Assembly (NCBI GenBank): GCA_016704325.1
Contig: JADJAG010000012.1
Span: 105,500-169,499, forward strand
Direction: 5' to 3'
DNA length: 64,000 nt
Origin: Chitinophagaceae bacterium
GTDB lineage: Bacteria > Bacteroidota > Bacteroidia > Chitinophagales > UBA10324
The position numbers and the translations under genes are program-made. The notes beneath the pieces are model-generated. The model saw only the letters and a list, made by a program, of their open reading frames with translations. It did not search any database and was not told where the DNA came from. Numbering within the stretch: the first letter of the stretch is position 1; each line of letters begins with the position of its first letter. Positions 8,151 through 30,800 of the stretch are shown here, piece by piece.

Positions 8151-9326
8151 TTATTGTTGATGAAAGACCATTCGATTTCCTGATGTCATGATTTCAATAT
8201 AGATACCGGCAGGTGCTGCTTCAAGTGTAGGATAATAACTACCGTAAATACTATAGTAGCCTTGACTTATAGATTGAACATTTGAATTCTTTATTGCAAT
8301 CACAGGACTATAATCAATCATGCCATCCAGGTTTACATTTCCCGTTCGGTAGTAGAGTGTTTTTGCTGCAGGAAGATACTGGTCGTGAAAGAAATAACTG
8401 GTCTTGTTTAGTGTATTCGTGATTCCCGGGACTTTACCGATTTCCTGCCAGTCAATTGCATTCAGGGATCGTTCAACCACATAATAATCAGTGTTTACTT
8501 CTGTAGCCGTAATCCATTGCAAGACTACTTTTTGGTCTGTAGTAGTACCCCAAAACGCTACAAGATCAATTGGCAGGATGAGGAGGCAGCCATTACAGTT
8601 TTCGGCAAATGGCATATCTTCCTCTTCACCGCTGCAACACCAATTTACGTTAACTGACCAAAAACTTAATGGATCATCCCTGATGTCTCCATCCTGCACT
8701 TCAATATAGCCGGTTCCGAAAAGAGAACCGGTTTCTTTGTTTCTGAAATTGCCATGCAAAATATAAAGACAGGTGTTGTTGAAATTAATGATGCCATCAT
8801 TCTTGAATTCTCCATTCTGAACACTCACTTCAATGTATGGCACCACAAAGGTGAGAATGCCGGTTTCTTTTACTTCAATATCACTTGCTATTACGGTAGT
8901 ATCAACCTGTGAAATGCCTTCTACCCTGAACCGTTCAACACAATCTATGGTTTGGTAAAAATTGCCGATACAGCCCGGCCCAATGTCAATACTTTTGCAA
9001 TCAACCGGTCCAAGAGCAACTATACTTCCTCCATTAAAAAATTCTATTTCGAAGTTGCCTGAAAGTGATCCTGTGCTAGTGATCAGCAGATGGGAATTAA
9101 GGTCAACTTCCAGGTCATTTCCAAGATTGATATCGTGATTAATGATTACAGTATCGTTCACCAAAATATACCCGGGAGTACATCCGCAAGCGCTGCTGCC
9201 ATTCGTTGACCAGACCGTGCTGCTATTATTCCAGTTGCCGTTTGCCAATGAAGTATACGTGGTTTGGCAGAAACCGGTAACAAGATTGGTTAACATAAAC
9301 GATACCAGCAGGAAAGAAATCTTCAT
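8151..9326 (-). CDS. Hypothetical secreted protein
   Basis: Signal peptide MKISFLLVSFMLTNLVTGFCQ from ATG 9326 (the track ORF starts at TTG 9344). No family recognised. The C-terminal part ...YYVVERS..IDWQEIGKV resembles Ig/FN3-like domains common in Bacteroidota cargo. Confidence 0.55.
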   Translation of the reverse strand: MKISFLLVSFMLTNLVTGFCQTTYTSLANGNWNNSSTVWSTNGSSACGCTPGYILVNDTVIINHDINLGNDLEVDLNSHLLITSTGSLSGNFEIEFFNGGSIVALGPVDCKSIDIGPGCIGNFYQTIDCVERFRVEGISQVDTTVIASDIEVKETGILTFVVPYIEVSVQNGEFKNDGIINFNNTCLYILHGNFRNKETGSLFGTGYIEVQDGDIRDDPLSFWSVNVNWCCSGEEEDMPFAENCNGCLLILPIDLVAFWGTTTDQKVVLQWITATEVNTDYYVVERSLNAIDWQEIGKVPGITNTLNKTSYFFHDQYLPAAKTLYYRTGNVNLDGMIDYSPVIAIKNSNVQSISQGYYSIYGSYYPTLEAAPAGIYIEIMTSGNRMVFHQQ

Positions 9327-9420
9327 AAATGGGGGAATACGCAAAGGAAGCTAACAGGTTGCATATTACGCTGTCAAAAAATACTCAATGGGAGAGAATT
9401 GTTGTTGAAAGGAGAACACG
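9300..9420. repeat. Direct repeat copy 1 (promoter/5'UTR plus first codons of the 8151-9326 gene)
   Basis: cttcataaatgggggaatacgcaaaggaagctaacaggttgca... matches 11560-11680 closely. Confidence 0.75.
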
Positions 9421-9480
9421 CGACAGTTCATAAATTGCAGGCGGGGTCGTTTTGCCTTTTGGGTTTGTATAATCTGCTCA

Positions 9481-9513
<33 letters not shown>

Positions 9514-9580
9514 TTGATGCCCGGATCAACTGCAGATTAGTTTCTTATACCTGGCAGCAGTTCGCCACGGAGGCGCCTTG

Positions 9581-9979
9581 TTACTTCTTCATAAATCTGT
9601 TTAGTAATGCACGACCTTGACGCCGAAATATCATTGCAATAAGAAGGCAACAAATTAAAACGATGATAGCGAGGATGAAAAGCTTACCGCCGTCTCCTTT
9701 AGACTCTATTCCGATAATGGTCATATGAGATAAGATGGCTCCTGACATTAAACCTATTCCAAGGAATGAACCAATAAATGCTGTAGCCGGAATCAACAGC
9801 AAGATGCCTGTTATTAATTCTATTATACCGGTTCCAATGCGACCCCAGGGCTCTACACCCAGTTTGGTAAACAGTTCAACGGATTCAGGATGACCGGTAA
9901 ATTTGAAGTAAAGTGTCTGTAAAAGAATTACTGCTGCAATAATTCTTAATAGCCAGGAGATGATAGTGGTTACTTTCAT
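9581..9979 (-). CDS. DoxX family membrane protein
   Basis: From ATG 9979: MKVTTIISWLLRIIAAVILLQTLYFKFTGHPESVELF..GVEPWGR. Four hydrophobic helices typical of DoxX. Confidence 0.75.
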   Translation of the reverse strand: MKVTTIISWLLRIIAAVILLQTLYFKFTGHPESVELFTKLGVEPWGRIGTGIIELITGILLLIPATAFIGSFLGIGLMSGAILSHMTIIGIESKGDGGKLFILAIIVLICCLLIAMIFRRQGRALLNRFMKK

Positions 9980-10004
9980 TATTAATGTATTTCTGTTGGT
10001 TAAA

Positions 10005-10478
10005 TTACTGGTAAATGGTCTGCCAGTTATTATCGGCTTTAATTCTAAGGGTGTTTTCGTTATCATTCCATTTGATCAAAGTATTGTTAGTCCATGAATG
10101 ATAAAACAGGTAAAGCCTGCCATTTGCAATTTTGAATGTTTCAGGGTCGATTGCAACTTTTTCTCCATTTGCTCCCATTGCATACGCACACCATCCACCA
10201 TACTGAGGTTCGTATTTTATGTAATTCTTTAGAAAGAGATCAAGGTTGGAGGAAGAGGCGAATAAATAGGTTACGCCACCAACAACAGCTGAAAATTGTT
10301 TATTACCCTTTACTGCTTTATTCTCAGAGAAGTAAGCGACCGGGTCATATCCTTGAATTGCAATGCCACTTTCCAGGTTGAATTGTTTTGAACGTAAGGC
10401 CTCCTGGGCAAATGATAGGTTACAGAGTAGTACCAATCCAAACACTTTGGCGATTATTTTAATAGTCTTCAATGACAT
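10005..10478 (-). CDS. YHS-domain protein (periplasmic)
   Basis: Signal peptide present. IAIQGYDPVAYF...YLFASSSN...YEPQYGGWCAYAM, the characteristic YHS-domain pattern. This family is often adjacent to DoxX. Confidence 0.8.
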   Translation of the reverse strand: MSLKTIKIIAKVFGLVLLCNLSFAQEALRSKQFNLESGIAIQGYDPVAYFSENKAVKGNKQFSAVVGGVTYLFASSSNLDLFLKNYIKYEPQYGGWCAYAMGANGEKVAIDPETFKIANGRLYLFYHSWTNNTLIKWNDNENTLRIKADNNWQTIYQ

Positions 10479-10675
10479 AAGTTTTCGATCATTTGATCCT
10501 TTGATGAATAATGGCCAATAACCAATGGCTTTCCTGATTTAAACTGCGGAATCAGCTAAACCAATCTCATTTACCTTACCGTTGTAGTTTAGGTATTGAA
10601 TACATCCGGTGAAAGTGCAAAAATGCTTCACGCTTCAATACGAGCAAATGGACAATGTTCCCGAATATTTGGAGA

Positions 10676-11536
10676 TTATTCCCTGGTGCGCTTCAATACA
10701 GCATTTCTTGCTTCCGAAGGATTCTGGCCTGCACAATTTTTATAGAACCTGCTGAAGTGTGCACTATCACTGAATCCCAGAGCATCAGCAATTTCTTTCA
10801 CAGGTTTATCTGTATAATATAGAAGTCGTTTCGCTTCACTTACAATTCTATCTTGTATGATTTGCTGTGGTGTCTTATTGTTGTACAACAAAAAGGTATT
10901 CGAAATGGTCTTTGGAGATTTGTGGAGCAGTCCAGCATAAAACTGAACCTGGTGCTCCTTTCGAAAATGCTGTTCCACCAGAAGGTTGTATTTCCTGACA
11001 AGTTTAAATTTGTCTTCGTCTACTTCAGCGACTGCCAGGTATTGCAGTTTGGCAAGGCGGGTTGTTTTGATGATGAGCCGCACCAGTAACATCCGCAACA
11101 TTTCGCCTTTGATGCCATCATCAGATTCAAACTCTTCTTCAAATACAACCAATAACCGTTCGAGCATCAATACATCTTCGGTATTAAGATTTACAAACAT
11201 GGTGGGCGAGGTGCCATAGAATACAAAACCTACACAACCCACTTCTACATCATGATCTACCACACAATAGAATTCTCTGTTAAACTGCCACGCAATCAAT
11301 ACGTCCGGTTTTTCGAAGCGAAATGACTGGCCCATCATAATCGGTAACAGGCATCCTTTTCCAAATGTGTAGTTTACTTCATCAATCACTACTGTTTGCT
11401 TATCACCCCTGTTCCAGACAATCGTATAAAATTTAGTGTCTTTCTTCTCCGGCAGGTAGCGCCGGTGAAAATCTGACTCGCCTTTTAATAAAAGAAATTT
11501 TCCTTCTCCGTCTTTATGGGAATACTGATATTTCAT
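10676..11536 (-). CDS. AraC family transcriptional regulator
   Basis: C-terminal double HTH (...YAGLLHKSPKTISNTF...IIQDRIVSEAKRLLYYTDKPVKEIADALGFSDSAHFSRFYK). The track start 11545 is TTG. The first ATG gives MKYQYSHK at 11536. Confidence 0.85.
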   Translation of the reverse strand: MKYQYSHKDGEGKFLLLKGESDFHRRYLPEKKDTKFYTIVWNRGDKQTVVIDEVNYTFGKGCLLPIMMGQSFRFEKPDVLIAWQFNREFYCVVDHDVEVGCVGFVFYGTSPTMFVNLNTEDVLMLERLLVVFEEEFESDDGIKGEMLRMLLVRLIIKTTRLAKLQYLAVAEVDEDKFKLVRKYNLLVEQHFRKEHQVQFYAGLLHKSPKTISNTFLLYNNKTPQQIIQDRIVSEAKRLLYYTDKPVKEIADALGFSDSAHFSRFYKNCAGQNPSEARNAVLKRTRE

Positions 11537-11559
11537 AGGGAACAAGATGGGTTAACAAA

Positions 11560-11680
11560 AACAAGATCAGCAGGACAGAAACCTTCATAAATGGGGGATT
11601 ACGCAAAGGAAGCTAACAGGTTGCACACTACAATACCAAAAAAGTACTGAATGGAGGAAAACTACTGTTAAATTGAAAAC
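11560..11680. repeat. Direct repeat copy 2, with an orphan signal-peptide stub
   Basis: Aligns to 9300-9420. The minus-strand ATG at 11588 encodes MKVSVLLILFLL... (compare MKISFLLVSFML) and then diverges into the AraC start region. Confidence 0.7.
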
Positions 11681-11752
11681 CCGCCATGGTTGATTATTTA
11701 CAAGTTGGATTGCATTAGTTCCTATAGCAGCAAAAGGGATCATGGCAGCAGG

Positions 11753-12136
11753 CTATTTTCGACCATCAAAGAAATCCTGTAAGCTTTCCAGAACAGGATT
11801 GGCAATGAAGGTGTTAAAAGCTTTATTGATCATCAATGTTCCATTTACAGGATTTATGATCGCATTTATCCTGGCTGTTAGTTTCTTATACTTCGCTAAA
11901 ACAAGGGTGAAGCCTTCATCCCTATGAATGAGAAAGTCAGGATTTTCAGTTAACAGATAGATGTTTTTCAAGACGGTTTTTTCACGATCATCTTTTTCAA
12001 CGCCGAGATTGAAAACAAATTCACTATAAGCATCAGCAGCAATATAAATGAATGCCATTCCTTCCATTGTGGGCACTTTTACCACAAAGAAAATTATGTA
12101 TTCACCCGGTCGTTTTGCAATTGGTAATTTGCTCAC
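11753..12136 (-). CDS. Hypothetical protein
   Basis: ORF only, with a GTG start in the track. No motif recognised. Confidence 0.3.
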   Translation of the reverse strand: MSKLPIAKRPGEYIIFFVVKVPTMEGMAFIYIAADAYSEFVFNLGVEKDDREKTVLKNIYLLTENPDFLIHRDEGFTLVLAKYKKLTARINAIINPVNGTLMINKAFNTFIANPVLESLQDFFDGRK

Positions 12137-12178
12137 CGCTTTAATTAGTTTAGTAAACTTACCGCAGGTAACTTCTTA

Positions 12179-14248
12179 TTACTCGACAATAGCTTTTTCG
12201 ACATATCGCTGATTTCCGTTTATTACTTCCACCAGATACAAGCCATGTGGCCAATCTTTCACATTTACTTCAGCACTACCTGAACCGGCCAGCCCTGTTT
12301 TGGATTCATAAACCACTCTTCCTAAAGTATTTGAAATCCTGATCAGTGACTCGCCTGATGTAGGAATAGTTATCGTGATAACGGTTGAAGCCGGCACCGG
12401 ATAGATTGAGATGGCCTGCAATTCCGCATTCATATTTTCCGAATCCTTTTGCGGTTTGGTCTTAAATGTTTTGGTTTCTGAAAAAGCGGATGCGATTGCA
12501 CCATCGTTGGTACACAGCGTTTTAACACGCCATTCATATTTTGTAGAAGCTGCTAAACCGGTAAGCTTTAAAATCGTGCGTCCTGTGGTCTTCACCGTCC
12601 AGTCTTGTGAGCCGGCAATCCGGTAGTGTATTTCATACTTTTTGGCACCATTGGCCGCTTGCCATTTCAATGAAACGAGTGTAGGTTTTATTGTAGCGTT
12701 CATTGTATAGCCGGTTATCCTGCTACATGGATTCCATTCATACTTATGAATGCGGTAACTCTTATATCCAATAGAGTCAAAGGTCATTTCCCAGACAATA
12801 TTTTTATCCGGATCTACTTCAGTGAAATTTGGCAATCCCTTGCTGGAAGTAGCCAGTCCCCAGTCAATGAGGGTGTTTCCATTAGGTAGCCGCTGCGCAT
12901 TGCCGGTAGCACCGGAAAATACTTTGTTGCCGTTTACATCAGGATGCTCATAGTACCAGGCCAATGTGGCGATTTTATTTACTTCATCTAAAGCATACTC
13001 CTTGGCACTGGATATTTGTACCGGAAGCTGATTGCCATTATTGTAAATCAGGATATTCCCGTTTGCTAACCGTCTTAAATCATGTTGTGATTGAAAATGC
13101 TGCGGAATATTGTCATTCACAAAAGTAAACTGGTTGTTATCACCACCCATGCGCCATATAATATCACCGGTTTCATGATTGATCTTGGTAAGCTCATTCA
13201 TATTTCTGCAGGAAATCATCAGGTGATTATCAAAATCTTTTTCTATAGAGTTACCATGGCAGTAGTTTACGATTGCATTGGTAAGCGGAGTGTATGCATT
13301 GGCATCTGTTACCAGGAAGTGGTCCCAACTTCTCCATTCAAACACCAGGTTTTTACTGGCGTCGAGTTCCTGGATAACCAAACCATACACAGAAGCATTT
13401 TGTATGCCTCCATAAGGTGTCATGTCCATAATCTGCAGGTTCTTTGCTAATAAGAACACATGGCCATCCGGATACATCATAAAATCATGACTGTCTGTTT
13501 CAATAGCATACCCATTGACGCATTGGAAAGAATCGAGTTTGTTAAAATTGGAATCCATTACTACCCACCAACCGGCAAAATAGTACGTCAGGTAACCGCT
13601 TTCATTGATCTTAAAATCCACCCCGCCATTAGCCTGGTCGCGTGCCCAGACTATGGAACCATCGTTGTTGATGATCGTGGAGAACCAGTTGGAAGTTGAA
13701 TTTTCCTTGTGGCTGGTAAAAAAATGTTGTCCGGGTGCCGGGTTATTATTCACATTAATTGTATAGGAAGGCATGGAGTCGAGCGGGTAGGGATCCTCTT
13801 CTTTAAACACCGGTAATTGAGCATGTTCCGTTTCCATCTTTTGCAGTCCAAGCCTGGCCTGTTCCCTTTGTTCAGCGGAAATTTCATTCATAATACTAAA
13901 TGTGAAACTGGTTCCTTCTACTACTGCTCCGGCTTTCGTACGCAGCCTGGATTGCACCGTCACAAAAACTTTTTCGCCATATGCAAAAGCAGGAAATGGT
14001 TTGATTACAACGGTTCTGTTGTCATCTGATAGTCGCGAAGTCCAGCTATGGGCACCACTCAAAGAGCCATGAATTTCAACGAGGTTTTTATCCAGTACAG
14101 ATATGTTGTCGATAAGCGTACCATGCTTAAGAATGATGGTAGCTTCCGGATGATGCATTGCTGATCCGGGAAGCGGATGAATATAGTTGAGCTGTGCGAA
14201 ACAATAATGGAAGAGCACACTAAGAACTGAAGTAAAAAGTAGTTTCAT
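12179..14248 (-). CDS. Arylsulfotransferase (ASST)-family beta-propeller protein with FN3 domain and T9SS CTD
   Basis: Signal peptide present. ASST-like blocks DSHDFMMYPDGHVFLL...VFEWRSWDHF...YCHGNSIE...LMISCRNMNELTKINHETGDIIWRMGG...QHDLRRLANGNILIYNNG. FN3 region (LKWQAANGAKKYEIHYR). CTD is IYPVPASTVITI...GLYLVEV. Confidence 0.8.
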   Translation of the reverse strand: MKLLFTSVLSVLFHYCFAQLNYIHPLPGSAMHHPEATIILKHGTLIDNISVLDKNLVEIHGSLSGAHSWTSRLSDDNRTVVIKPFPAFAYGEKVFVTVQSRLRTKAGAVVEGTSFTFSIMNEISAEQREQARLGLQKMETEHAQLPVFKEEDPYPLDSMPSYTINVNNNPAPGQHFFTSHKENSTSNWFSTIINNDGSIVWARDQANGGVDFKINESGYLTYYFAGWWVVMDSNFNKLDSFQCVNGYAIETDSHDFMMYPDGHVFLLAKNLQIMDMTPYGGIQNASVYGLVIQELDASKNLVFEWRSWDHFLVTDANAYTPLTNAIVNYCHGNSIEKDFDNHLMISCRNMNELTKINHETGDIIWRMGGDNNQFTFVNDNIPQHFQSQHDLRRLANGNILIYNNGNQLPVQISSAKEYALDEVNKIATLAWYYEHPDVNGNKVFSGATGNAQRLPNGNTLIDWGLATSSKGLPNFTEVDPDKNIVWEMTFDSIGYKSYRIHKYEWNPCSRITGYTMNATIKPTLVSLKWQAANGAKKYEIHYRIAGSQDWTVKTTGRTILKLTGLAASTKYEWRVKTLCTNDGAIASAFSETKTFKTKPQKDSENMNAELQAISIYPVPASTVITITIPTSGESLIRISNTLGRVVYESKTGLAGSGSAEVNVKDWPHGLYLVEVINGNQRYVEKAIVE

Positions 14249-14358
14249 GGGATGGTTGCTATGTTTAGTTTAATGTTGTTAAATCCATATCAACAGGTTC
14301 TATTCACAAAAATAAAAGAATCGGACACTTCCAATGTACCATTCAATAGTTCAAAGAT

Positions 14359-17606: not shown

Positions 17607-19301
17607 ATGGAACTTCGCAATACTGATCCGGGCAGTTCGCTTATTGAAGCACAGAAGGCACTCGATTTTGCAGAGGAGCTTAACTTTCCATTAGGCAAGG
17701 CCCGTAGTCGGTTTTGTATGGGACTTGCCTGTTTCAATCTTACAGATTACGAGAGTGCATTTATTCATCTTGACCAATCATGGCAGCTATTCAAGGATGC
17801 CGGAGATCTATGGGGAGTAAGCAATGCAATCAATAACATAGGAATCATCTATCTGCGATTGGGCGAATATGCCAAAGCGCTCGAGCACTTCTCTTCTTCT
17901 CTTGAAATAAAAAAAGAGTCGAACGACCTGTTCGGCACTGCCAACGTGATAATTAGCATGGCTGTCATTCATCGTGAAACCGGAAACCTCGAAGAATCTC
18001 AATCCTTATTGGCAGAGAGTTTGAAAATATCCGGAGAACAGGGCTTTCATGCCCTTACCGGAAAAGCAATGACAGAACTTGGCATTACCCTTTTTAAAGC
18101 GGGTAAACTTGCAGAGGCATCGGAAAAATTTTCAACAGCCTTAGCCTTGTTTGAAAAGCAAAAGCACATTACGGGAGTTACGCAGTGCTATCTGCAGCTT
18201 GGTAAAATAGAAGCGGCAACAGGAAATACGCATGCCGCTATTGCCTTATTCCTGCAGGGTCAGGAGATGGCTTCGATGGCAGGTGATAAAAATCATTTCA
18301 CTGTTTTTCTTTTGGAAATTGCCGGAGAAAAGCTGAAAGCCGGTATAATGGAAGAAGCCGTTTTTTTGCTATTGGATGCGAAGAAGATTGCTCAGAAAAC
18401 ACAGGAAAAGCCATTGTTAACTTTAATCAGTCAGCACTTGAGTACCGCATATGAAGCGATGGGTAATCTGAAGGATGCTTTGCTGGAATACAGAAGTTTC
18501 ATCGCACTTAAGGATGAAATTAATTTTGTGGAGACTTCCACCCTTTTAAGAAATCAGCAGATCAGTAACAGGGTTGCAGTGCTGGAAAGAGAGAACCGTT
18601 TGCTGGAAGCGGAACGCATGGCTGCTGTGCACGAACTTAGTGCACAAGCCAGTTTGCAGGAAATAAGAACGTTGAATGCCATGATGGAAGGGCAGGAAAA
18701 GGAAAGGAAACGTATTGCCGCAGATCTTCATGATCGTATTGGAAGTGCGCTATCAGCCATCAAACTTCATCTCAATAGTTTTGCTATTACATTCGATAAT
18801 ACGGAACAAAAGCAAACTGCGTTTGAAAAGGTAGTCGCTATGTTTGACGATACTGTAAAGGAGGTGAGGCAGGTTTCGCATAATTTGGCTTCGGGCGTAT
18901 TGGTGAAGTTCGGATTGGTGCCGGCATTGAAGGATTTGTGTGAGAGCATCGACAGTTCCGGCACCATAAAAGTTACATTGTATACTACCGGATTAACAGC
19001 ACGGTTGGATCAGGCTATGGAAGCATCTGTTTATTCCATCGTACAGGAATTGATCAGCAATATTCTCCGGCATGCACATGCTAATGAAATCAATGTGTAT
19101 CTTAACCAGCAGGCTGAGCAGCTTACGCTGATGGTAGAAGATGACGGTATTGGTTTCGATTCATCTGGTACAAGCGATGGCATTGGCCTGCAGAACATCA
19201 GGTGGCGGACGGCTCAGCTTAGGGGAAAAGCTTTTTTCGATTCACTACCGGGCAAAGGTTGCACGGTTACTATTGAGATTCCAAAAACACCTATTTTATG
19301 A
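17607..19301 (+). CDS. TPR-repeat histidine kinase (HisKA_3/NarX-DegS type), apparently soluble
   Basis: N-terminal TPR-like repeats (..NNIGIIYLRLGEYAKALEHF..). Coiled coil. H-box RKRIAADLHDRIGSAL. HATPase N/G boxes (ELISNILRHA, DDGIGF, GIGLQN). I see no hydrophobic TM segment. The frame is closed upstream by TGA at 17523. Confidence 0.85.
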   Translation: MELRNTDPGSSLIEAQKALDFAEELNFPLGKARSRFCMGLACFNLTDYESAFIHLDQSWQLFKDAGDLWGVSNAINNIGIIYLRLGEYAKALEHFSSSLEIKKESNDLFGTANVIISMAVIHRETGNLEESQSLLAESLKISGEQGFHALTGKAMTELGITLFKAGKLAEASEKFSTALALFEKQKHITGVTQCYLQLGKIEAATGNTHAAIALFLQGQEMASMAGDKNHFTVFLLEIAGEKLKAGIMEEAVFLLLDAKKIAQKTQEKPLLTLISQHLSTAYEAMGNLKDALLEYRSFIALKDEINFVETSTLLRNQQISNRVAVLERENRLLEAERMAAVHELSAQASLQEIRTLNAMMEGQEKERKRIAADLHDRIGSALSAIKLHLNSFAITFDNTEQKQTAFEKVVAMFDDTVKEVRQVSHNLASGVLVKFGLVPALKDLCESIDSSGTIKVTLYTTGLTARLDQAMEASVYSIVQELISNILRHAHANEINVYLNQQAEQLTLMVEDDGIGFDSSGTSDGIGLQNIRWRTAQLRGKAFFDSLPGKGCTVTIEIPKTPIL

Positions 19302-19936
19302 TACGCATCATCATTGCCGACGACCACCAAATGTTTATTGATGGACTGAAACTCATCATCAGTAGTTTTGACAATGTTCAAGTAGCTGGTGAAGCTCAAA
19401 ATGGAGAGGCTGTGCTCGAATTATTGGAGCATACCCGGGCTGACCTGGTAATACTCGACATTAATATGCCGGGTAAAGACGGCATTGAAACCTCCAAAGA
19501 GATCCGGAAGAAATATCCGGATGTCAAAATTCTCATTGTTTCCATGCATAAGCAGAAGGAATTCATAACACGGTTGGTAGCGGCCGGTGTTTCAGGATAC
19601 ATCCTGAAAAATACCGGTGCCGGCGAATTGCATGATGCAATCAGGGTGATTCATGAAGGTGGTGAATTTTTTGGTGAAGAGATCACCAAGGAAATTTTGC
19701 ACAGCATGCGGAACCGTGAAAGCATTCCGGAAGCACCGCCCTTCAGCAAACGAGAGGTGGAAGTATTGCGGCTACTGAATGAAGAACTTACCACGCAGGA
19801 AATTGCCGATAGACTTTTTATCAGTTTTCATACTGTAGAATCGCATCGAAAGAATATGTTGATGAAAGCAGGTGTAAAAAATACAGCGGGGTTGATCAGG
19901 TATGGCATAAATACGGGGTTGATTGGAATGGGTTGA
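19298..19936 (+). CDS. NarL/FixJ-type response regulator (REC plus GerE/LuxR HTH)
   Basis: IIIADDH...LDINMPGKDG receiver domain. C-terminal FSKREVEVLRLL.EELTTQEIADRLFIS.HTVESHRKN. Overlaps the kinase stop by 4 nt (ATGA). Confidence 0.9.
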   Translation: MIRIIIADDHQMFIDGLKLIISSFDNVQVAGEAQNGEAVLELLEHTRADLVILDINMPGKDGIETSKEIRKKYPDVKILIVSMHKQKEFITRLVAAGVSGYILKNTGAGELHDAIRVIHEGGEFFGEEITKEILHSMRNRESIPEAPPFSKREVEVLRLLNEELTTQEIADRLFISFHTVESHRKNMLMKAGVKNTAGLIRYGINTGLIGMG

Positions 19937-20354: not shown

Positions 20355-20428
20355 TCCCCGCTTTCAGGGATGTCCATTTTGCCCGAATTCTGTGATGTAC
20401 TTGGCCTCCATACAGTGGCATCTTTGTA
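20355..20428 (+). promoter_or_regulatory. Promoter cassette copy A (degenerate left half-site)
   Basis: tccccgctttcaggga, then 48 nt (..cattttgcccgaattctgtgatg..), then catctttgta at 20419. Confidence 0.6.
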
Positions 20429-20466
20429 TTGTCCTTTAGCAATTATAGGATTTAAAAACAAACACC

Positions 20467-22418: not shown

Positions 22419-22441
22419 AATTCAAATGCGCGTAGTTGGCA

Positions 22442-22515
22442 TCCCTGAATTCAGGGATACGCATTTTACCCGAAACCGGTGATGTAATAGCCTTGCCGGT
22501 AAGGCCATATTTGTA
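22442..22515 (+). promoter_or_regulatory. Promoter cassette copy B
   Basis: Perfect tccctgaattcaggga, then 48 nt (..cattttacccgaaaccggtgatg..), then catatttgta at 22506. Confidence 0.65.
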
Positions 22516-22548
22516 CCAGCAAATGTCACCCACAAAAAAATTACAACC

Positions 22549-22713
22549 ATGTTGAACACTTCCTTCCACACTAATGTTTCAAGCCGGAAATCAGAATCAG
22601 AAAGCGAGCACATCAGCCGTTTAGTGTACAATGTCTTTGTTGAGCTGGGCGCATGGACAGTAGCCGTGGGATTTATCTCCTCCATGCTCCGCATAACAAC
22701 ATCTATTCTATAA
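22549..22713 (+). CDS. Small peptide P2 (54 aa), GAW-peptide family (divergent tail)
   Basis: MLNTSFHTNVSSRKSESESEHISRLVYNVFVELGAWTVAVGFISSMLRITTSIL. Not in the ORF track. Sits 33 nt after the cassette box. Confidence 0.55.
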   Translation: MLNTSFHTNVSSRKSESESEHISRLVYNVFVELGAWTVAVGFISSMLRITTSIL

Positions 22714-23157
22714 AAATCAATAACGGAAATCTCCGCGAAGAAGAGGATCAGTGTGAAGAACTGCAGCAACCTATCAATGTGAATCAGATTTAACAAGTAT
22801 CTGTCAAATATAGCTGCGGTTTTTCACGCATCCTGGTTTAAGGGAAATTAATCATGAATCCCCAAAGAGAACAATATTGTTTTTGTCTATAAAGTAATCG
22901 CACCCGGCCATTTTCACTTTCATCATCATGTATTTGAAACTATGTGTGATTCACAGCAAATTAATCAGCTGCTTAGAAAGGATATCATATCATCGTTTAT
23001 TTTACTGATCCTGATTTTAAGTGCAGCCACAGGTGTATGCCTGTTCCATCCGCTTTCAATTGCTCCGGCAGAAAGTTTATAATAATCTGTCGTATTTCCT
23101 TTTCGGCATTACGCTTTTCATATTCAGAGTACATAGCAGGCAAATCAACTCACCATA

Positions 23158-23223
23158 TTCAGGGAGCACCATTTTACCTGATTTCCATGATGCATTTCCG
23201 TTTGTCATCACCTGATCTTTGTT
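23158..23223 (+). promoter_or_regulatory. Promoter cassette copy H (right half-site only)
   Basis: ttcaggga, then 48 nt (gcacc attttacc tgatttcc atgatg + 21 nt), then gatctttgtt at 23214. The internal phasing is identical to the other copies. Confidence 0.55.
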
Positions 23224-23348
23224 ACACAAAATGTTTTTACGCTAACAAGGTTCAATAGGTTGTTCCGGTTGATCAGGAACTGAAATGAACAGCAGACTGA
23301 ACCTTGATTTTAACATATTCCTATCAACATCATTAAACACCAACTATT

Positions 23349-23543
23349 ATGAAACTTACAAGAAGAGAGCTGCAAGTGCTTACCCTGATTCAGGAAGGAC
23401 TTACGACCAAGGAAGTTGCTTCCAGGCTGCAAATCAGCACGAGAACGGTAGAGACCTACCGGCGCAACATCAATGAAAAATTGCAGGTGCGTAATGTCAC
23501 CGCTGCCCTTTGCGTTGCCCGGCGCCTTTACCTTATTGAGTGA
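23349..23543 (+). CDS. GerE/LuxR-type HTH-only transcriptional regulator (64 aa)
   Basis: MKLTRRELQVLTLIQEGLTTKEVASRLQISTRTVETYRRNINEKL. The HTH domain makes up the whole protein. Confidence 0.8.
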   Translation: MKLTRRELQVLTLIQEGLTTKEVASRLQISTRTVETYRRNINEKLQVRNVTAALCVARRLYLIE

Positions 23544-23758
23544 GATAGGCTACGTAGTTAATGGTATTGACAAGCGGTCACCTGGTGTCGCATCTTTGAC
23601 ATGAATTGCTAACTATTTTTTTAAACCGGTTTCCAGGTTACCGTTTCAGCATACAGAGCCGGAAGATATGTTTAAGAAATAACTGACACACGGCAAAATA
23701 TTGAAGCACCAAACAGTTAACTGTACAAACAACAGCGTTCATCTTAAATCTTCATTTT

Positions 23759-24088
23759 ATGTTAAGCGCCCATATTCAAAGACGGATTATGAATTCCCGC
23801 AGAACGGAAATTCGCGCTTTTTCAAGAAGTTACCTTTTAACCTCCCGGATATTGGGATGGAACAGTGCTATTAATCGTAGCGCGGCAAGATCTGTTGCCA
23901 TGGGCTTAAGAAGTCCTGGCGCCAACAGGGAAAATAAATCTACCGTTACTGCAGTGAAGCCCGTTGCAAGAAAAATCAATCGCATAGAAGTATTTCTTTT
24001 TAATGTGACTGTTGAAGTGGGTGCCTGGTTGCTCTCAATAGGTTTTTTTGCTGCAAGTATTTGGCTGATCAAAAATTTATTTGATTGA
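23759..24088 (+). CDS. GAW-peptide family member P3 (62-109 aa depending on start)
   Basis: C-terminus is ...KINRIEVFLFNVTVEVGAWLLSIGFFAASIWLIKNLFD. The ORF is open from ATG 23759, with an internal ATG at 23900 (62 aa). There is no canonical cassette upstream. Confidence 0.5.
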   Translation: MLSAHIQRRIMNSRRTEIRAFSRSYLLTSRILGWNSAINRSAARSVAMGLRSPGANRENKSTVTAVKPVARKINRIEVFLFNVTVEVGAWLLSIGFFAASIWLIKNLFD

Positions 24089-24158
24089 ATGCTGGAAGTG
24101 ATATAACGCACTTAACTGTTATCAATTTGTTTAAAATACACGATAAAAATATATAATT

Positions 24159-26264
24159 ATGAAATCCATCCATTTTCTAACAAGCGCACTTGCATTCTTT
24201 GCACTATTCATTACCACAAACATGCTTTCTGCCCAGGTATTGCCTGTTAAGGAGTGGGACAAGCGTTTTGGTGGAAGCGGTTCTGACGCACTGTATACGA
24301 TACAGCAAACCACCGATGGGGGCTATCTCCTTGGAGGGGATTCTGATTCACCGGTAGGTGGTGATAAATCTCAAGGCAGTAAGGGCAGCACAGATTTTTG
24401 GATTTTAAAAACAAATGGAGCCGGAGTAAAGGAATGGGATAAAAGCTTTGGTGGAAATCTTGCGGAGAGTATGTATGCAGTAATGCAAACCAACGATGGA
24501 GGTTTTATTCTCGGTGGTGAATCCAAGTCAGGTATTAGTGGAGACAAAACACAAGATGCCCACGGCGGACTGGACTATTGGATTGTAAAAACAGATGCTT
24601 CCGGAACAAAGCAATGGGATGTAAGATTTGGAGGAAGCGCTGATGATGAACTTCGAAGCGTTCAGCAAACCATTGACGGCGGATATATCCTTGCAGGATT
24701 CTCCAGTTCGGGAATCAGTGGTGATAAATCAGAGGCAGGCCGGGGGGCAACTGACTATTGGTTGGTTAAAACGGATGCGAATGGAATCAAACAATGGGAT
24801 GCCAGGTTTGGGGGAGCATCCAATGATGAATTACGTTCTTGCAGTCAGACCATTGATGGAGGTTACATCCTGGCAGGCTTTTCAAAATCGGTTATCAGCG
24901 GAGATAAGACCATCGCATGCAAGGGTTCAACAGACTATTGGATCGTAAAGATAAATGCAGAAGGTGTAAAACAATGGGATGCCGTGTTTGGTGGAAGTGA
25001 CAGTGAATACCTGTATGCTATTCAGCAAACAGCCGATGAAGGTTACATACTCGGCGGATATTCAGAATCGGGAATCACCGGAGATGTAACAGAGCCGTGC
25101 ATAGGTGGTTTTGATTTTTGGATGGTAAAGACAGATACTTCCGGCGGAAAACAATGGGATAAGCGATTCGGAGGAAGCGGTTACGACAAGCAAAAGTTCA
25201 TTCAGCAGACAACAGATGGCGGATACCTTTTAGCAGGTTGGTCCGATTCAGGTATTAGCGGTGATAAAACACAGGCTAATGTGGGAAATGGTGATTACTG
25301 GGTTGTGAAGACGGATGCTACCGGTGTAAAAATGTGGGATGCTGCATTTGGAGGAACCCTGGACGATAAAATTCATTGTGTTCCACAAACCAATGATGGT
25401 GGTTATCTGCTTGGTGGCTATTCTTACTCTAACTCTGGAGGAGATGTTACACAAGCCAGCCAGGGGTTGAATGATTACTGGATCGTAAAAATTTCATCCA
25501 CTACTTCATTACAAAAATATTTTGTTGATGCAGATGGTGATGGGTTTGGGAATCCGGCACATGATACACTTTCTATGTTGCCACCATCCGGATTCGTTAC
25601 TAATAATAAAGATTGTGAAGATAGCCATCCTGAAATACATCCCGGAGCAGATGATCTATGCAATGGCATTGATGACAATTGCAACCTGCTGACAGATGAA
25701 AATGCTATGGCTATACCTAATATTTCACCGGCAGGTAGTATGGCAATATGTCCCGGCACACAGGTAACGTTTGCTACTGAATATACAGATAATGTCTCTT
25801 ACCAATGGATCAAAAACGGAGTTATCCTTTCCGGAGCAACTGGTCTGACTTTTCAAACCGGCAACAACGGAAGTTACGCGGTCGCAGCCACAAATGGATA
25901 TGGATGCAGTGCCATTTCCGCAGTTACGTTGATCAGTAAGCTAACAGGTCCTAACGCCGAAATAATACCATTGGGTGATTTGAATATTTGTCAATCAATG
26001 CAGGTTGCTTTACAAGCCAATGCAGGTTTCGGGTTTAATTATCAATGGCTGAATGGAAACAACAATATTCCCGGAGCAACCAATCAGATCTATGTTGCGA
26101 CCAAGGCTGCATCATACAAAGTAAAAGTTACTAATGGAGACGGTTGCAGCAAGCATTCGCCGGCTGTCCAGGTTACCAAATTATGTAAGGAGATTGCATC
26201 ATCAGAAACGGACAAAGCGGTTCAGCTTTACTTTATCCGAATCCAACGAAAGGAAGATTCATAA
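24159..26264 (+). CDS. Secreted 60-aa-repeat protein (7-8 repeats) plus MopE-like motif plus Ig-like domains; frameshifted before its T9SS CTD
   Basis: Signal peptide present. WD(K/A)(R/S)FGG...QQT.DGGY..(G/A)G...S...GDK........D(Y/F)W.VKT...G repeats with about 60-aa period. DADGDGFGN...DCEDSHPEIHPGADDLCNGIDDNCN. The frame ends at 26264 just where YPNP would begin. Confidence 0.8.
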   Translation: MKSIHFLTSALAFFALFITTNMLSAQVLPVKEWDKRFGGSGSDALYTIQQTTDGGYLLGGDSDSPVGGDKSQGSKGSTDFWILKTNGAGVKEWDKSFGGNLAESMYAVMQTNDGGFILGGESKSGISGDKTQDAHGGLDYWIVKTDASGTKQWDVRFGGSADDELRSVQQTIDGGYILAGFSSSGISGDKSEAGRGATDYWLVKTDANGIKQWDARFGGASNDELRSCSQTIDGGYILAGFSKSVISGDKTIACKGSTDYWIVKINAEGVKQWDAVFGGSDSEYLYAIQQTADEGYILGGYSESGITGDVTEPCIGGFDFWMVKTDTSGGKQWDKRFGGSGYDKQKFIQQTTDGGYLLAGWSDSGISGDKTQANVGNGDYWVVKTDATGVKMWDAAFGGTLDDKIHCVPQTNDGGYLLGGYSYSNSGGDVTQASQGLNDYWIVKISSTTSLQKYFVDADGDGFGNPAHDTLSMLPPSGFVTNNKDCEDSHPEIHPGADDLCNGIDDNCNLLTDENAMAIPNISPAGSMAICPGTQVTFATEYTDNVSYQWIKNGVILSGATGLTFQTGNNGSYAVAATNGYGCSAISAVTLISKLTGPNAEIIPLGDLNICQSMQVALQANAGFGFNYQWLNGNNNIPGATNQIYVATKAASYKVKVTNGDGCSKHSPAVQVTKLCKEIASSETDKAVQLYFIRIQRKEDS

Positions 26265-26517: not shown

Positions 26518-26533
26518 TCCCTGAATTCAGGGA
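26518..26533. promoter_or_regulatory. Palindrome copy F (palindrome only, non-canonical spacing)
   Basis: Perfect tccctgaattcaggga sits 14 nt after the 26503 stop. A catctttgtg box follows after only 23 nt. This could be an operator, a terminator hairpin, or both. Confidence 0.4.
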
Positions 26534-30120: not shown

Positions 30121-30800
30121 AGCAATCCCGAAGGGATGAAATGATTATAGAGATAAAATCAAAAGAAGATAGCAGAATCCCGAAGGGATGACAGAATTAC
30201 TGCAACTAAAACAAAGGCAACAATAATCACGAATTGAAAAACTAATCACGAAAGGAATAAAATTTTTTATGGCAGGCACATTTTCACAAATCTACATCCA
30301 GGTTGTTTTTGCTGTGAAAGGAAGGCAAAACCTGATTCAAAAAGCATGGAAAGATGACCTGCACAAATACATGGCAGGAATCATTAAAGGCAAAAAGCAA
30401 AAATCCATTATCGTTAATGGCATGCCTGATCATATCCATGCATTCATTGGATTGAAGCCAGCAATGGCAGTTTCGGATCTGGTGCGAGACATCAAAAACA
30501 ATTCTACCAATTTTATCAATGATCGTAAGCTGGTCAAAGGAAAATTTTCATGGCAGGACGGATACGGTTCATTTTCTTACGGTCATTCACAGATTGATAA
30601 AGTGTACAAATACATTCTGAATCAAGAACAGCACCATCGTAAAAAAACATTTAGGGAAGAATATCTCGACTTCCTTAAAAAATTTGAGGTGCCTTACGAT
30701 GAAAAATATTTGTTTGAATGGATTGAATGATGGTGTCACCCCTACGGGGTTGGTGTGGGTGAAGATTCATTTTCTATAATCCTGGCATCCCTTCGGGATT
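30121..30800 (+). mobile_element. RAYT/IS200-like unit: Y1 transposase flanked by REP-like hairpins
   Basis: atcccgaagggat at 30125-30137 and 30177-30189. The inverted copy atcccttcgggat is at 30787-30799. A further hairpin acccctacggggt is at about 30738-30750. Confidence 0.7.
30269..30730 (+). CDS. IS200/IS605-family Y1 (HUH) transposase, REP-associated (RAYT-like)
   Basis: 153 aa. HUH motif MPDHIHAFIGL. Tyr region SWQDGYGSFSY. Typical size, and a single gene with no TnpB. Confidence 0.8.
   Translation: MAGTFSQIYIQVVFAVKGRQNLIQKAWKDDLHKYMAGIIKGKKQKSIIVNGMPDHIHAFIGLKPAMAVSDLVRDIKNNSTNFINDRKLVKGKFSWQDGYGSFSYGHSQIDKVYKYILNQEQHHRKKTFREEYLDFLKKFEVPYDEKYLFEWIE

Follow-up and report, generated by a model that had tools for sequence, protein, structure and literature searches.

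GerE of Bacillus subtilis (74 aa, structure 1fse) is a stand-alone LuxR/FixJ-type four-helix helix-turn-helix (HTH) protein that has no sensor domain, is produced late in a cascade controlled by another regulator, and works with sigma-K in sporulation on RWWTRGGY-type sites. The isolated C-terminal domain of SsrB, a NarL-family response regulator of Salmonella (structure 2jpc), binds DNA and activates transcription without phosphorylation. RcsA, a non-phosphorylated LuxR-type HTH protein, acts together with the NarL-family regulator RcsB on a composite box, and the promoter of its own gene carries such a box. The operators of NarL/NarP in Escherichia coli consist of inverted heptamers (TACYYMT) placed 2 bp apart (16 bp), and a promoter contains more than one such site.

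The gene described here lies in a stretch of 64,000 nucleotides from an uncultured wastewater Bacteroidota lineage (the window, at its full length), in which secreted repeat proteins and small membrane peptides are expressed from a repeated promoter cassette. A sequence-only reading of the window had proposed that a 64-aa protein consisting of a GerE-type HTH is the autoregulated master regulator of these cassettes. The comparison with 60 relatives presented here points to a different controller, namely a soluble TPR kinase and a NarL-type response regulator encoded a few kilobases upstream, with the small protein as a probable accessory of their regulon. A literature search found nothing specific to this system. 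The features of the locus are collected in Table 1.

Table 1. Features of the GerE-only locus (positions in the window, except for the last row)
Feature	Position	Strand	Basis or remark
TPR/HisKA_3/HATPase histidine kinase, partner of the regulator	17607..19301	+	Domain match; upstream of regulator orthologues in G001 and G018
NarL-type response regulator (receiver and GerE HTH)	19298..19936	+	Domain match; phyletic co-occurrence and synteny with the cassette
Cassette A, which drives peptide P1 and lies about 420 nt beyond the response-regulator gene	20355..20430	+	
Cassette B, full-strength, drives peptide P2 (22549-22713)	22442..22517	+	
Decayed remnant just after P2, homologous to the G004 GerE-only pseudogene	22734..22856	+	z = 14.4 against G004:C59
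Cassette H	23150-23223	+	Two operators, spacer, TG, -7-type box
Cassette H, distal 16-bp operator TCACCATATTCAGGGA	23150..23165	+	14/16 conserved in L067
Cassette H, spacer gcaccattt, 9 nt	23166..23174	+	Sets the operators 25 bp apart, centre to centre
Cassette H, proximal operator TACCTGATTTCCATGA	23175..23190	+	14/16 identical in L067
Cassette H, -7-type box CTGATCTTTGTT	23212..23223	+	TTTG at 23218-23221, offset 68 from cassette start
Leader from promoter to ATG, ~125 nt	23224..23348	+	49% identity to L067, similar length
GerE-only (LuxR/FixJ-type HTH) gene, 64 aa	23349..23543	+	Pfam GerE match, similarity to the SsrB C-terminal domain, orthologues
Conserved 3' block CTACGTAGTTAATGGTATTGACAA	23550..23573	+	Adjoins -33-like TTGACA; unique in the genome
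Putative separate promoter for P3 and cargo gene	23563..23600	+	TTGACA, 21-nt spacer, catcTTTG at 23595-23598
P3, long-form GAW membrane protein, 109 aa	23759..24088	+	Could also start at 23789 (MNSRR)
Repeat-rich secreted cargo gene downstream of P3	24159..26264	+	Family member directly behind the equivalent G001 cassette
G016 operator set	L018 (G016:C8) 9008-14335, and one at G016:C1:132249		

The GerE-only protein

The 64-aa protein belongs to an ordinary and well-known protein family. It matches Pfam GerE (PF00196) with an E-value of 7.5e-20 and 70.8 bits (cut-off 23.5) over positions 2–57 of the 57-position profile, and its nearest solved structure is the SsrB C-terminal domain (2jpc, E 4e-12), whose match covers residues 6–64 and takes in the last (dimerisation) helix of the four-helix HTH. 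Its further solved relatives are other NarL-family output domains and GerE itself (1fse, E 3e-6). The open frame around the gene is 68 aa long, too short to include a sensor or receiver domain at the N-terminus; the protein thus fits the stand-alone (GerE-only) subclass, in which receiver, ligand-binding and other N-terminal domains are all absent. Its description in the sequence-only reading as nothing but a GerE/LuxR HTH is borne out by the full-length Pfam match and the short frame.

Orthologues have been found at 91%, 75% and 61% identity, and four orthologues have a common N-terminus of the form MK(KK)LT or MTKRLT. Relative to the 91% orthologue, 10 codons carry synonymous changes only and 6 are changed non-synonymously, and relative to the 75% orthologue the two counts are 20 and 20, from which the gene appears to be under purifying selection. 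The open reading frame is a real, selected, stand-alone GerE/LuxR HTH protein.

Two other origins were considered and rejected. The protein is not a recent copy of the HTH domain of the neighbouring response regulator, as its HTH is 47–50% identical to that domain and 44–55% identical to the HTHs of unrelated regulators; as to a truncated response regulator, a remnant of a receiver domain was not found upstream of the gene. At the positions at which NarL contacts bases, the recognition helices of the 64-aa protein and of the regulator read E/T/R and E/S/K respectively in our own alignment, a likeness that prevents the alignment from telling their specificities apart.

Architecture of the promoter cassette

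The cassette is made up of two copies of one 16-bp operator of 7-2-7 geometry, separated by a 9-nt spacer that sets them 25 bp apart from centre to centre; spacer and distance are constant in about 20 cassettes from six genomes. The second operator is followed by TG, about 22 nt and a (C)AT(C/A)TTTG box, the TTTG of which begins 67–68 nt from the first base of the cassette in nearly all of these copies. The operator consensus is TCCCTGA-AT-TCAGGGA, and 84 folded half-sites give T1-N-N-C4-N-G6-A7-A8, with T1, C4 and G6 invariant. Anchoring on TTCAGGGA recovers the cassette copies that had been listed from the window sequence. Both operators are perfect TCCCTGAATTCAGGGA in several relatives, while in the window the proximal operator is usually degenerate (TACCGGAATTCTGTGA). 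For this reason ATTTTACC and ATGATG had been taken for separate blocks of the cassette; the relatives in which both operators are perfect show that they are instead the end of the spacer and a degenerate second operator of 16 bp.

The proximal operator would adjoin the −33 element (at the TTG position) of a Bacteroidota −33/−7 promoter, a class-II-like position for an activator, and the TTTG box is probably a −7 element of the Bacteroidota TAnnTTTG type. An interpretation of the palindrome as a terminator hairpin was rejected, given its fixed distance to the −7 box, its tandem arrangement and the lack of a T-run in most copies.

Outside the window, the same genome (G000) contains further regulon members at C11:258828, C6:242721, C5:526534 and C9:13886. 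Two of these sites are two-operator cassettes (53 and 37.6 bits), the other two are single perfect palindromes at the position of the proximal operator, like copy F at 26518 of the window, and all four precede secreted repeat proteins where a gene is evident.

Cassette H and the promoter of the GerE-only gene

Copy H, which precedes the GerE-only gene, has the full cassette architecture, with one defective half in each operator. In the distal operator the right half (TTCAGGGA, 23158–23165) is perfect and the left half is defective, with the invariant G6 replaced by A and A7 by T. The proximal operator adjoins the −33 TG; its left half is usable, and its right half has T in place of C4. After the proximal operator come TG, about 21 nt and GATCTTTGTT. 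The single half-site described in the sequence-only reading is therefore essentially right, and it is true of both operators.

Scored with a 76-nt weight matrix built from 22 other cassette copies, H itself being left out, H reaches 41.5 bits, against a median near 70 for the other copies. Scores of at least 41.5 bits occur at only 8 positions on both strands of the 4.9-Mb genome, and all of them are cassettes, which upholds the claim that a cassette copy precedes the gene; H is the weakest member of this promoter family. In the metagenome contigs that carry the 91% orthologue (L067–L071), each of the two H operators is identical at 14 of 16 positions, whereas the upstream flank is 41% and the leader 49% identical, which argues that H is not simply decaying. 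The weakened state of the cassette in front of the gene, another point of the sequence-only reading, is thus retained in a strain whose protein is 91% identical.

At position 23164 of the window, a strain that is about 94% identical (run X26) has TTCAGGTA in place of TTCAGGGA in the right half of the distal H operator. This half-site variant is also present in the operators of relatives.

Distribution of the cassettes and of their candidate regulators

The exact 14-mer CCCTGAATTCAGGG occurs six times each in G000 and G004, five times in G020, four times in G018, three times in G012 and once in G047, and the other 55 genomes have none. Orthologues of the NarL-type regulator, with 71–85% identity, are found only in G001, G004, G012, G018 (two copies) and G020, the next best match in any relative being 49% identical. 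The palindrome is present in multiple copies only where a regulator orthologue is present (Fisher p = 5e-5), a co-occurrence that spans only three genera, so that the cases are not phylogenetically independent. G001, an apparent exception by the 14-mer, carries two cassettes of degenerate sequence immediately behind its regulator gene. The palindrome usually lies just downstream of the regulator gene, in every case a cassette is found 140–420 nt beyond that gene, and the order of kinase, regulator and cassette is conserved, with a TPR/HisKA_3 kinase preceding the regulator in G001 and G018.

The 64-aa protein is not present wherever the operators are. The operator family and the cassette architecture are found in G001, G004, G012, G018 and G020, and none of these five genomes has an intact orthologue of the small gene. 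As G004, G012 and G020 are 66–87% complete, the absence of the gene from them counts for less than that from G001 and G018, which are about 100% complete. This phyletic pattern favours the response regulator as the primary operator-binder and speaks against the 64-aa protein as the master, a role for which the sequence-only reading had put it forward and which is not supported by the five genomes that have cassettes without an intact orthologue, G004 having only a pseudogene. The NarL-type regulator, which had been named as the alternative candidate, is better supported by its co-occurrence with the cassettes and its position beside them, and is the best candidate for the protein that binds the operators.

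In G018 (L048; G018:C96, 2555–8325, minus strand), a kinase gene, a regulator gene, a cassette, a T9SS cargo gene, a second cassette and a GAW peptide gene are followed by a 51-aa ORF (by eye, a candidate kinase remnant), a second full-length copy of the regulator (78% identical to that of the window) and a sulfatase gene. The second regulator copy suggests that a regulator gene behind a cassette is a recurring design.

Rarity and history of the GerE-only gene

The family of the 64-aa gene is very rare. Among the 60 relatives an orthologue is found only in G016 (61% identity), which has no palindrome, and a search of 5.8 billion proteins returned 7 with at least 60% identity. A scan of metagenome contigs for orthologues gave nothing above 58% identity, a scan of species genomes (at least 60%) gave the G016 genome alone, and a family-level genome search gave G000 and G016 alone; with the protein, metagenome, species-genome and family-level searches exhausted, the phyletic sample for this gene cannot be enlarged. 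A DNA synteny search with 22420–24300 against 11 relatives found no homologue of the region of the GerE gene, and matched only cassette B and the remnant at 22735–22838.

Every GerE-only gene or remnant has a GAW peptide gene no more than about 220 nt away, in three arrangements. In the window the gene is directly upstream of P3 and of the cargo gene that follows it, at the positions originally given. On the contig with the 75% orthologue (L064) a long-form GAW peptide gene ends 105 nt before the GerE-only gene, and the N-terminus of P3 resembles that of this long peptide. On G004:C59 the order is a cassette, a 38-aa GAW peptide and a GerE-only remnant with a frameshift, whose successive frames give SARTAETYRLNIE and VNNITAVLHI, collinear with GerE profile positions 32–44 and 48–58 (HMM matches in two frames). 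The DNA of this remnant aligns with the 64-aa gene at z = 7.4 and is followed by the GGTATTGACAA block, as are the intact genes. It is also homologous to the stretch that follows a P2-like peptide in G001. The remnant behind P2 in the window contains RTAATYQ, collinear with RTVETYR, a match that is weak on its own.

At the position of H, G001 has a cassette that directly drives a cargo gene of the same family, with the GerE gene and P3 both absent. In G018 there are other small GerE-only genes, which are non-orthologous and not near cassettes. According to these remnants the 64-aa gene would have decayed in G004, in G001 and once in the genome of the window. Its repeated loss, while the cassettes and the response regulator persist, points to a dispensable accessory, and the gene is most likely an old, lineage-specific addition to modules of cassette and peptide.

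Several further elements surround these loci. The G004 pseudogene is followed, at 676–1023 of L037 (G004:C59), by part of the ATPase domain of a histidine kinase (...GAGLGIGLAVAKSIMEQHGGTIELESEPGIGT...), which suggests repeated turnover of regulatory genes in the region. At 760–1060 of L064, REP-like hairpins (ATCCCGAAGGGAT and ATCCCTTCGGGAT) separate the GerE-only orthologue from a Kelch-repeat cargo gene; elements of this type also occur near 30125–30800 of the window. P3 and the peptide at 18–275 of L064 are long forms of 85–109 aa, which have in common an N-terminal ML..I...(E/I)MNSR ahead of the GAW helix (EMNTR in P5), and for several GAW peptides the start may have to be reassigned.

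The 3' block and the putative promoter of P3

The block just beyond the stop codon of the GerE-only gene, CTACGTAGTTAATGGTATTGACAA, is also kept behind both the L064 orthologue and the G004 pseudogene, and an operator follows the G016 orthologue at the equivalent position. The putative promoter that it adjoins belongs to a class, GGYRATTGACAA...CATCTTTAC, that also precedes GAW peptides in G001:C4 and G005:C289, where the peptides are downstream of other regulators, probably of NarL type. A scan for sigma-70 promoters and terminators between the GerE stop codon and P3, which does not model Bacteroidota promoters, found no terminator-like site. In one metatranscriptome, short contigs span 23699–23846 only, a stretch that has no bearing on the GerE transcript or on where it starts. 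The 3' block may be the promoter of P3 itself, an operator for the 64-aa protein, or both.

GAW-type peptides are also encoded at same-genus loci that lack TCCCTGAATTCAGGGA, namely L158 (G001:C4), L157 (G005:C289), L156, L159 and L160, and those of L157 and L158 follow other genes for LuxR-type HTH proteins, which are probably regulators of the NarL type. At these loci the peptide promoters bear another palindrome, TCGCCA-N4-TGGCGA, joined to TTGACAA. Small membrane peptides of the GAW type may generally serve as a first target for these two-component systems, comparable to feedback peptides of the MgrB type.

The related locus in G016

The cluster around the G016 orthologue encodes a LuxR-type protein of 176–191 aa, whose N-terminal part has no Pfam match, together with an S8 peptidase, a Kelch/MopE T9SS cargo protein and a TPR/HisKA_3 kinase that is 21% identical to that of the window; an orthologue of the response regulator is absent from this genome. 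Five promoters in G016 carry a single operator, TCACC-N3-TT-N2-GGGA, which adjoins TTG and is followed about 25 nt further on by TTTG, the same geometry as that of the proximal operator in the cassette. Four of the five are within 5.3 kb, and one precedes the 64-aa orthologue itself. One operator, TCACCGGTTTCGGGGA, is identical at 15 of 16 positions to the reverse complement of the proximal operator of cassette B. Judged by these sequences, the G016 system is a cousin of that in the window, with a single operator per promoter.

The distal H operator, TCACCATATTCAGGGA, fits the G016 pattern TCACCRNWTTNRGGGA, a pattern that is itself close to a normal degenerate half-site of the regulator. Among 22 distal operators H is the only one with A at position 3, and its left half (TCACC...) matches the operators around the only distant orthologue (MAG SZAS-60), although TCACCG(A/T)A is a normal degenerate half-site of an operator of the response-regulator type. 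The GerE-only protein may bind this family of operators and its own promoter; in G016 the neighbouring LuxR-type protein could equally be the binder.

Proposed regulation and alternative explanations

With moderate confidence, we regard the neighbouring response regulator as the controller of the cassettes and the 64-aa protein as a downstream, second-tier accessory rather than the master. Phosphorylated by means of the TPR kinase, the regulator would activate all cassettes from the class-II-like position. With one half intact in each of its operators, H would fire only at high regulator activity, which would make the GerE-only gene a late target, most likely a low-affinity target and accessory of the regulon. 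Its product would need no phosphorylation and probably binds operators of the 7-2-7 family, acting as a second tier on its own gene, P3 and the cargo gene. Both the TCACC-type half of the distal H operator and the block 3' of the stop codon of this gene are candidate sites for it.

The model originally proposed, of a dimeric palindrome binder that is an autoregulated master and controls itself weakly through the half-site in H, is consistent with a complete HTH of a class that binds 16-bp inverted repeats, with the cassette copy in front of the gene, and with G016, where a related single operator is found at the promoter of the orthologue and at four others in a genome that lacks the response regulator. 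Against it stand the five genomes that keep multiple and often perfect cassettes without an intact orthologue (in G004 a pseudogene), the great rarity of the 64-aa family, and the second LuxR-type protein next door in G016, an equally good binder; we consider this model the least probable of those discussed here. The possibility that the small HTH gene is an insertion in the course of being lost, with no role in the circuit, while H serves P3 and the cargo gene, fares little better. The equivalent G001 locus, with a cassette and then cargo, the two decayed copies of the gene and the unrelated GerE-only genes in relatives without cassettes would all agree with a passenger, but intact copies are under apparent purifying selection, their linkage to GAW peptide genes recurs in three different arrangements and the promoter footprint before the gene is conserved, and we find such a passenger very unlikely.

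A small chance is given to a local relay, in which the 64-aa protein would bind the 3' block and not the palindromes, and would switch on P3 and the cargo gene once H has fired. The block is unique in the genome, it is kept after the 75% orthologue and the G004 pseudogene with an equivalent operator after the G016 orthologue, and a GAW peptide gene is never more than about 220 nt from a GerE-only gene or remnant. However, the block contains no clear inverted repeat and could be a strong constitutive −33 region, since the GGYRATTGACAA class of promoter precedes GAW peptides that have no GerE-only neighbour. In a more specific and rather speculative reading, itself unlikely, the 64-aa protein is a natural HTH-only partner of the regulator, is expressed from the weakest cassette, and either pairs with the regulator on composite operators, like RcsA with RcsB, or acts alone without phosphorylation; the adjacent long GAW protein, with its single membrane pass, would gate its activity, the two forming a pair of regulator and anti-regulator. 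If true, this would add a phosphorylation-independent layer of memory or feedback to a two-component regulon of secreted proteins.

Comparison with known systems

The analysis assigns a likely controller to the cassette promoters of this lineage and defines their operator, with T-N-N-C-N-G-A-A halves in 7-2-7 geometry and tandem placement at 25 bp; the natural promoters form a graded set from perfect to half-defective. Like the operators of NarL/NarP, those of the cassette are inverted heptamers 2 bp apart with more than one site per promoter, and a regulator of the NarL family is encoded next door. The heptamers themselves, TACYYMT in E. coli and T(C/A)(C/A)CNGA in the cassette, combine the same geometry with a different specificity, and unlike NarL/NarP sites the putative cassette operators form a rigid tandem fused to a Bacteroidota −33/−7 promoter.

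The interest of the 64-aa protein is mainly that it may represent, in nature, the output domain of a response regulator encoded as a separate gene within the regulon of that regulator; that it is found again and again beside small membrane peptides increases this interest. By analogy, the activity of the SsrB C-terminal domain without phosphorylation is the behaviour expected of the HTH-only protein, of which that domain is the closest solved sequence relative; the SsrB domain was made in the laboratory by truncating a full response regulator, whereas the HTH-only form described here is a natural gene. Parallels to the proposed wiring may be seen in RcsA/RcsB and in the place of GerE in the sporulation cascade. 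The distal H operator looks composite, with a TCACC-type half and a regulator-type half, and in this recalls the RcsA/RcsB box, but RcsA has about 140 additional N-terminal residues, a domain that the 64-aa protein lacks, and the likeness is one of analogy only. GerE resembles the 64-aa protein in its stand-alone HTH and, as proposed here, in its late production under another regulator; the identity between the two is low, and unlike GerE the 64-aa protein would act within a Bacteroidota two-component regulon of secreted proteins.
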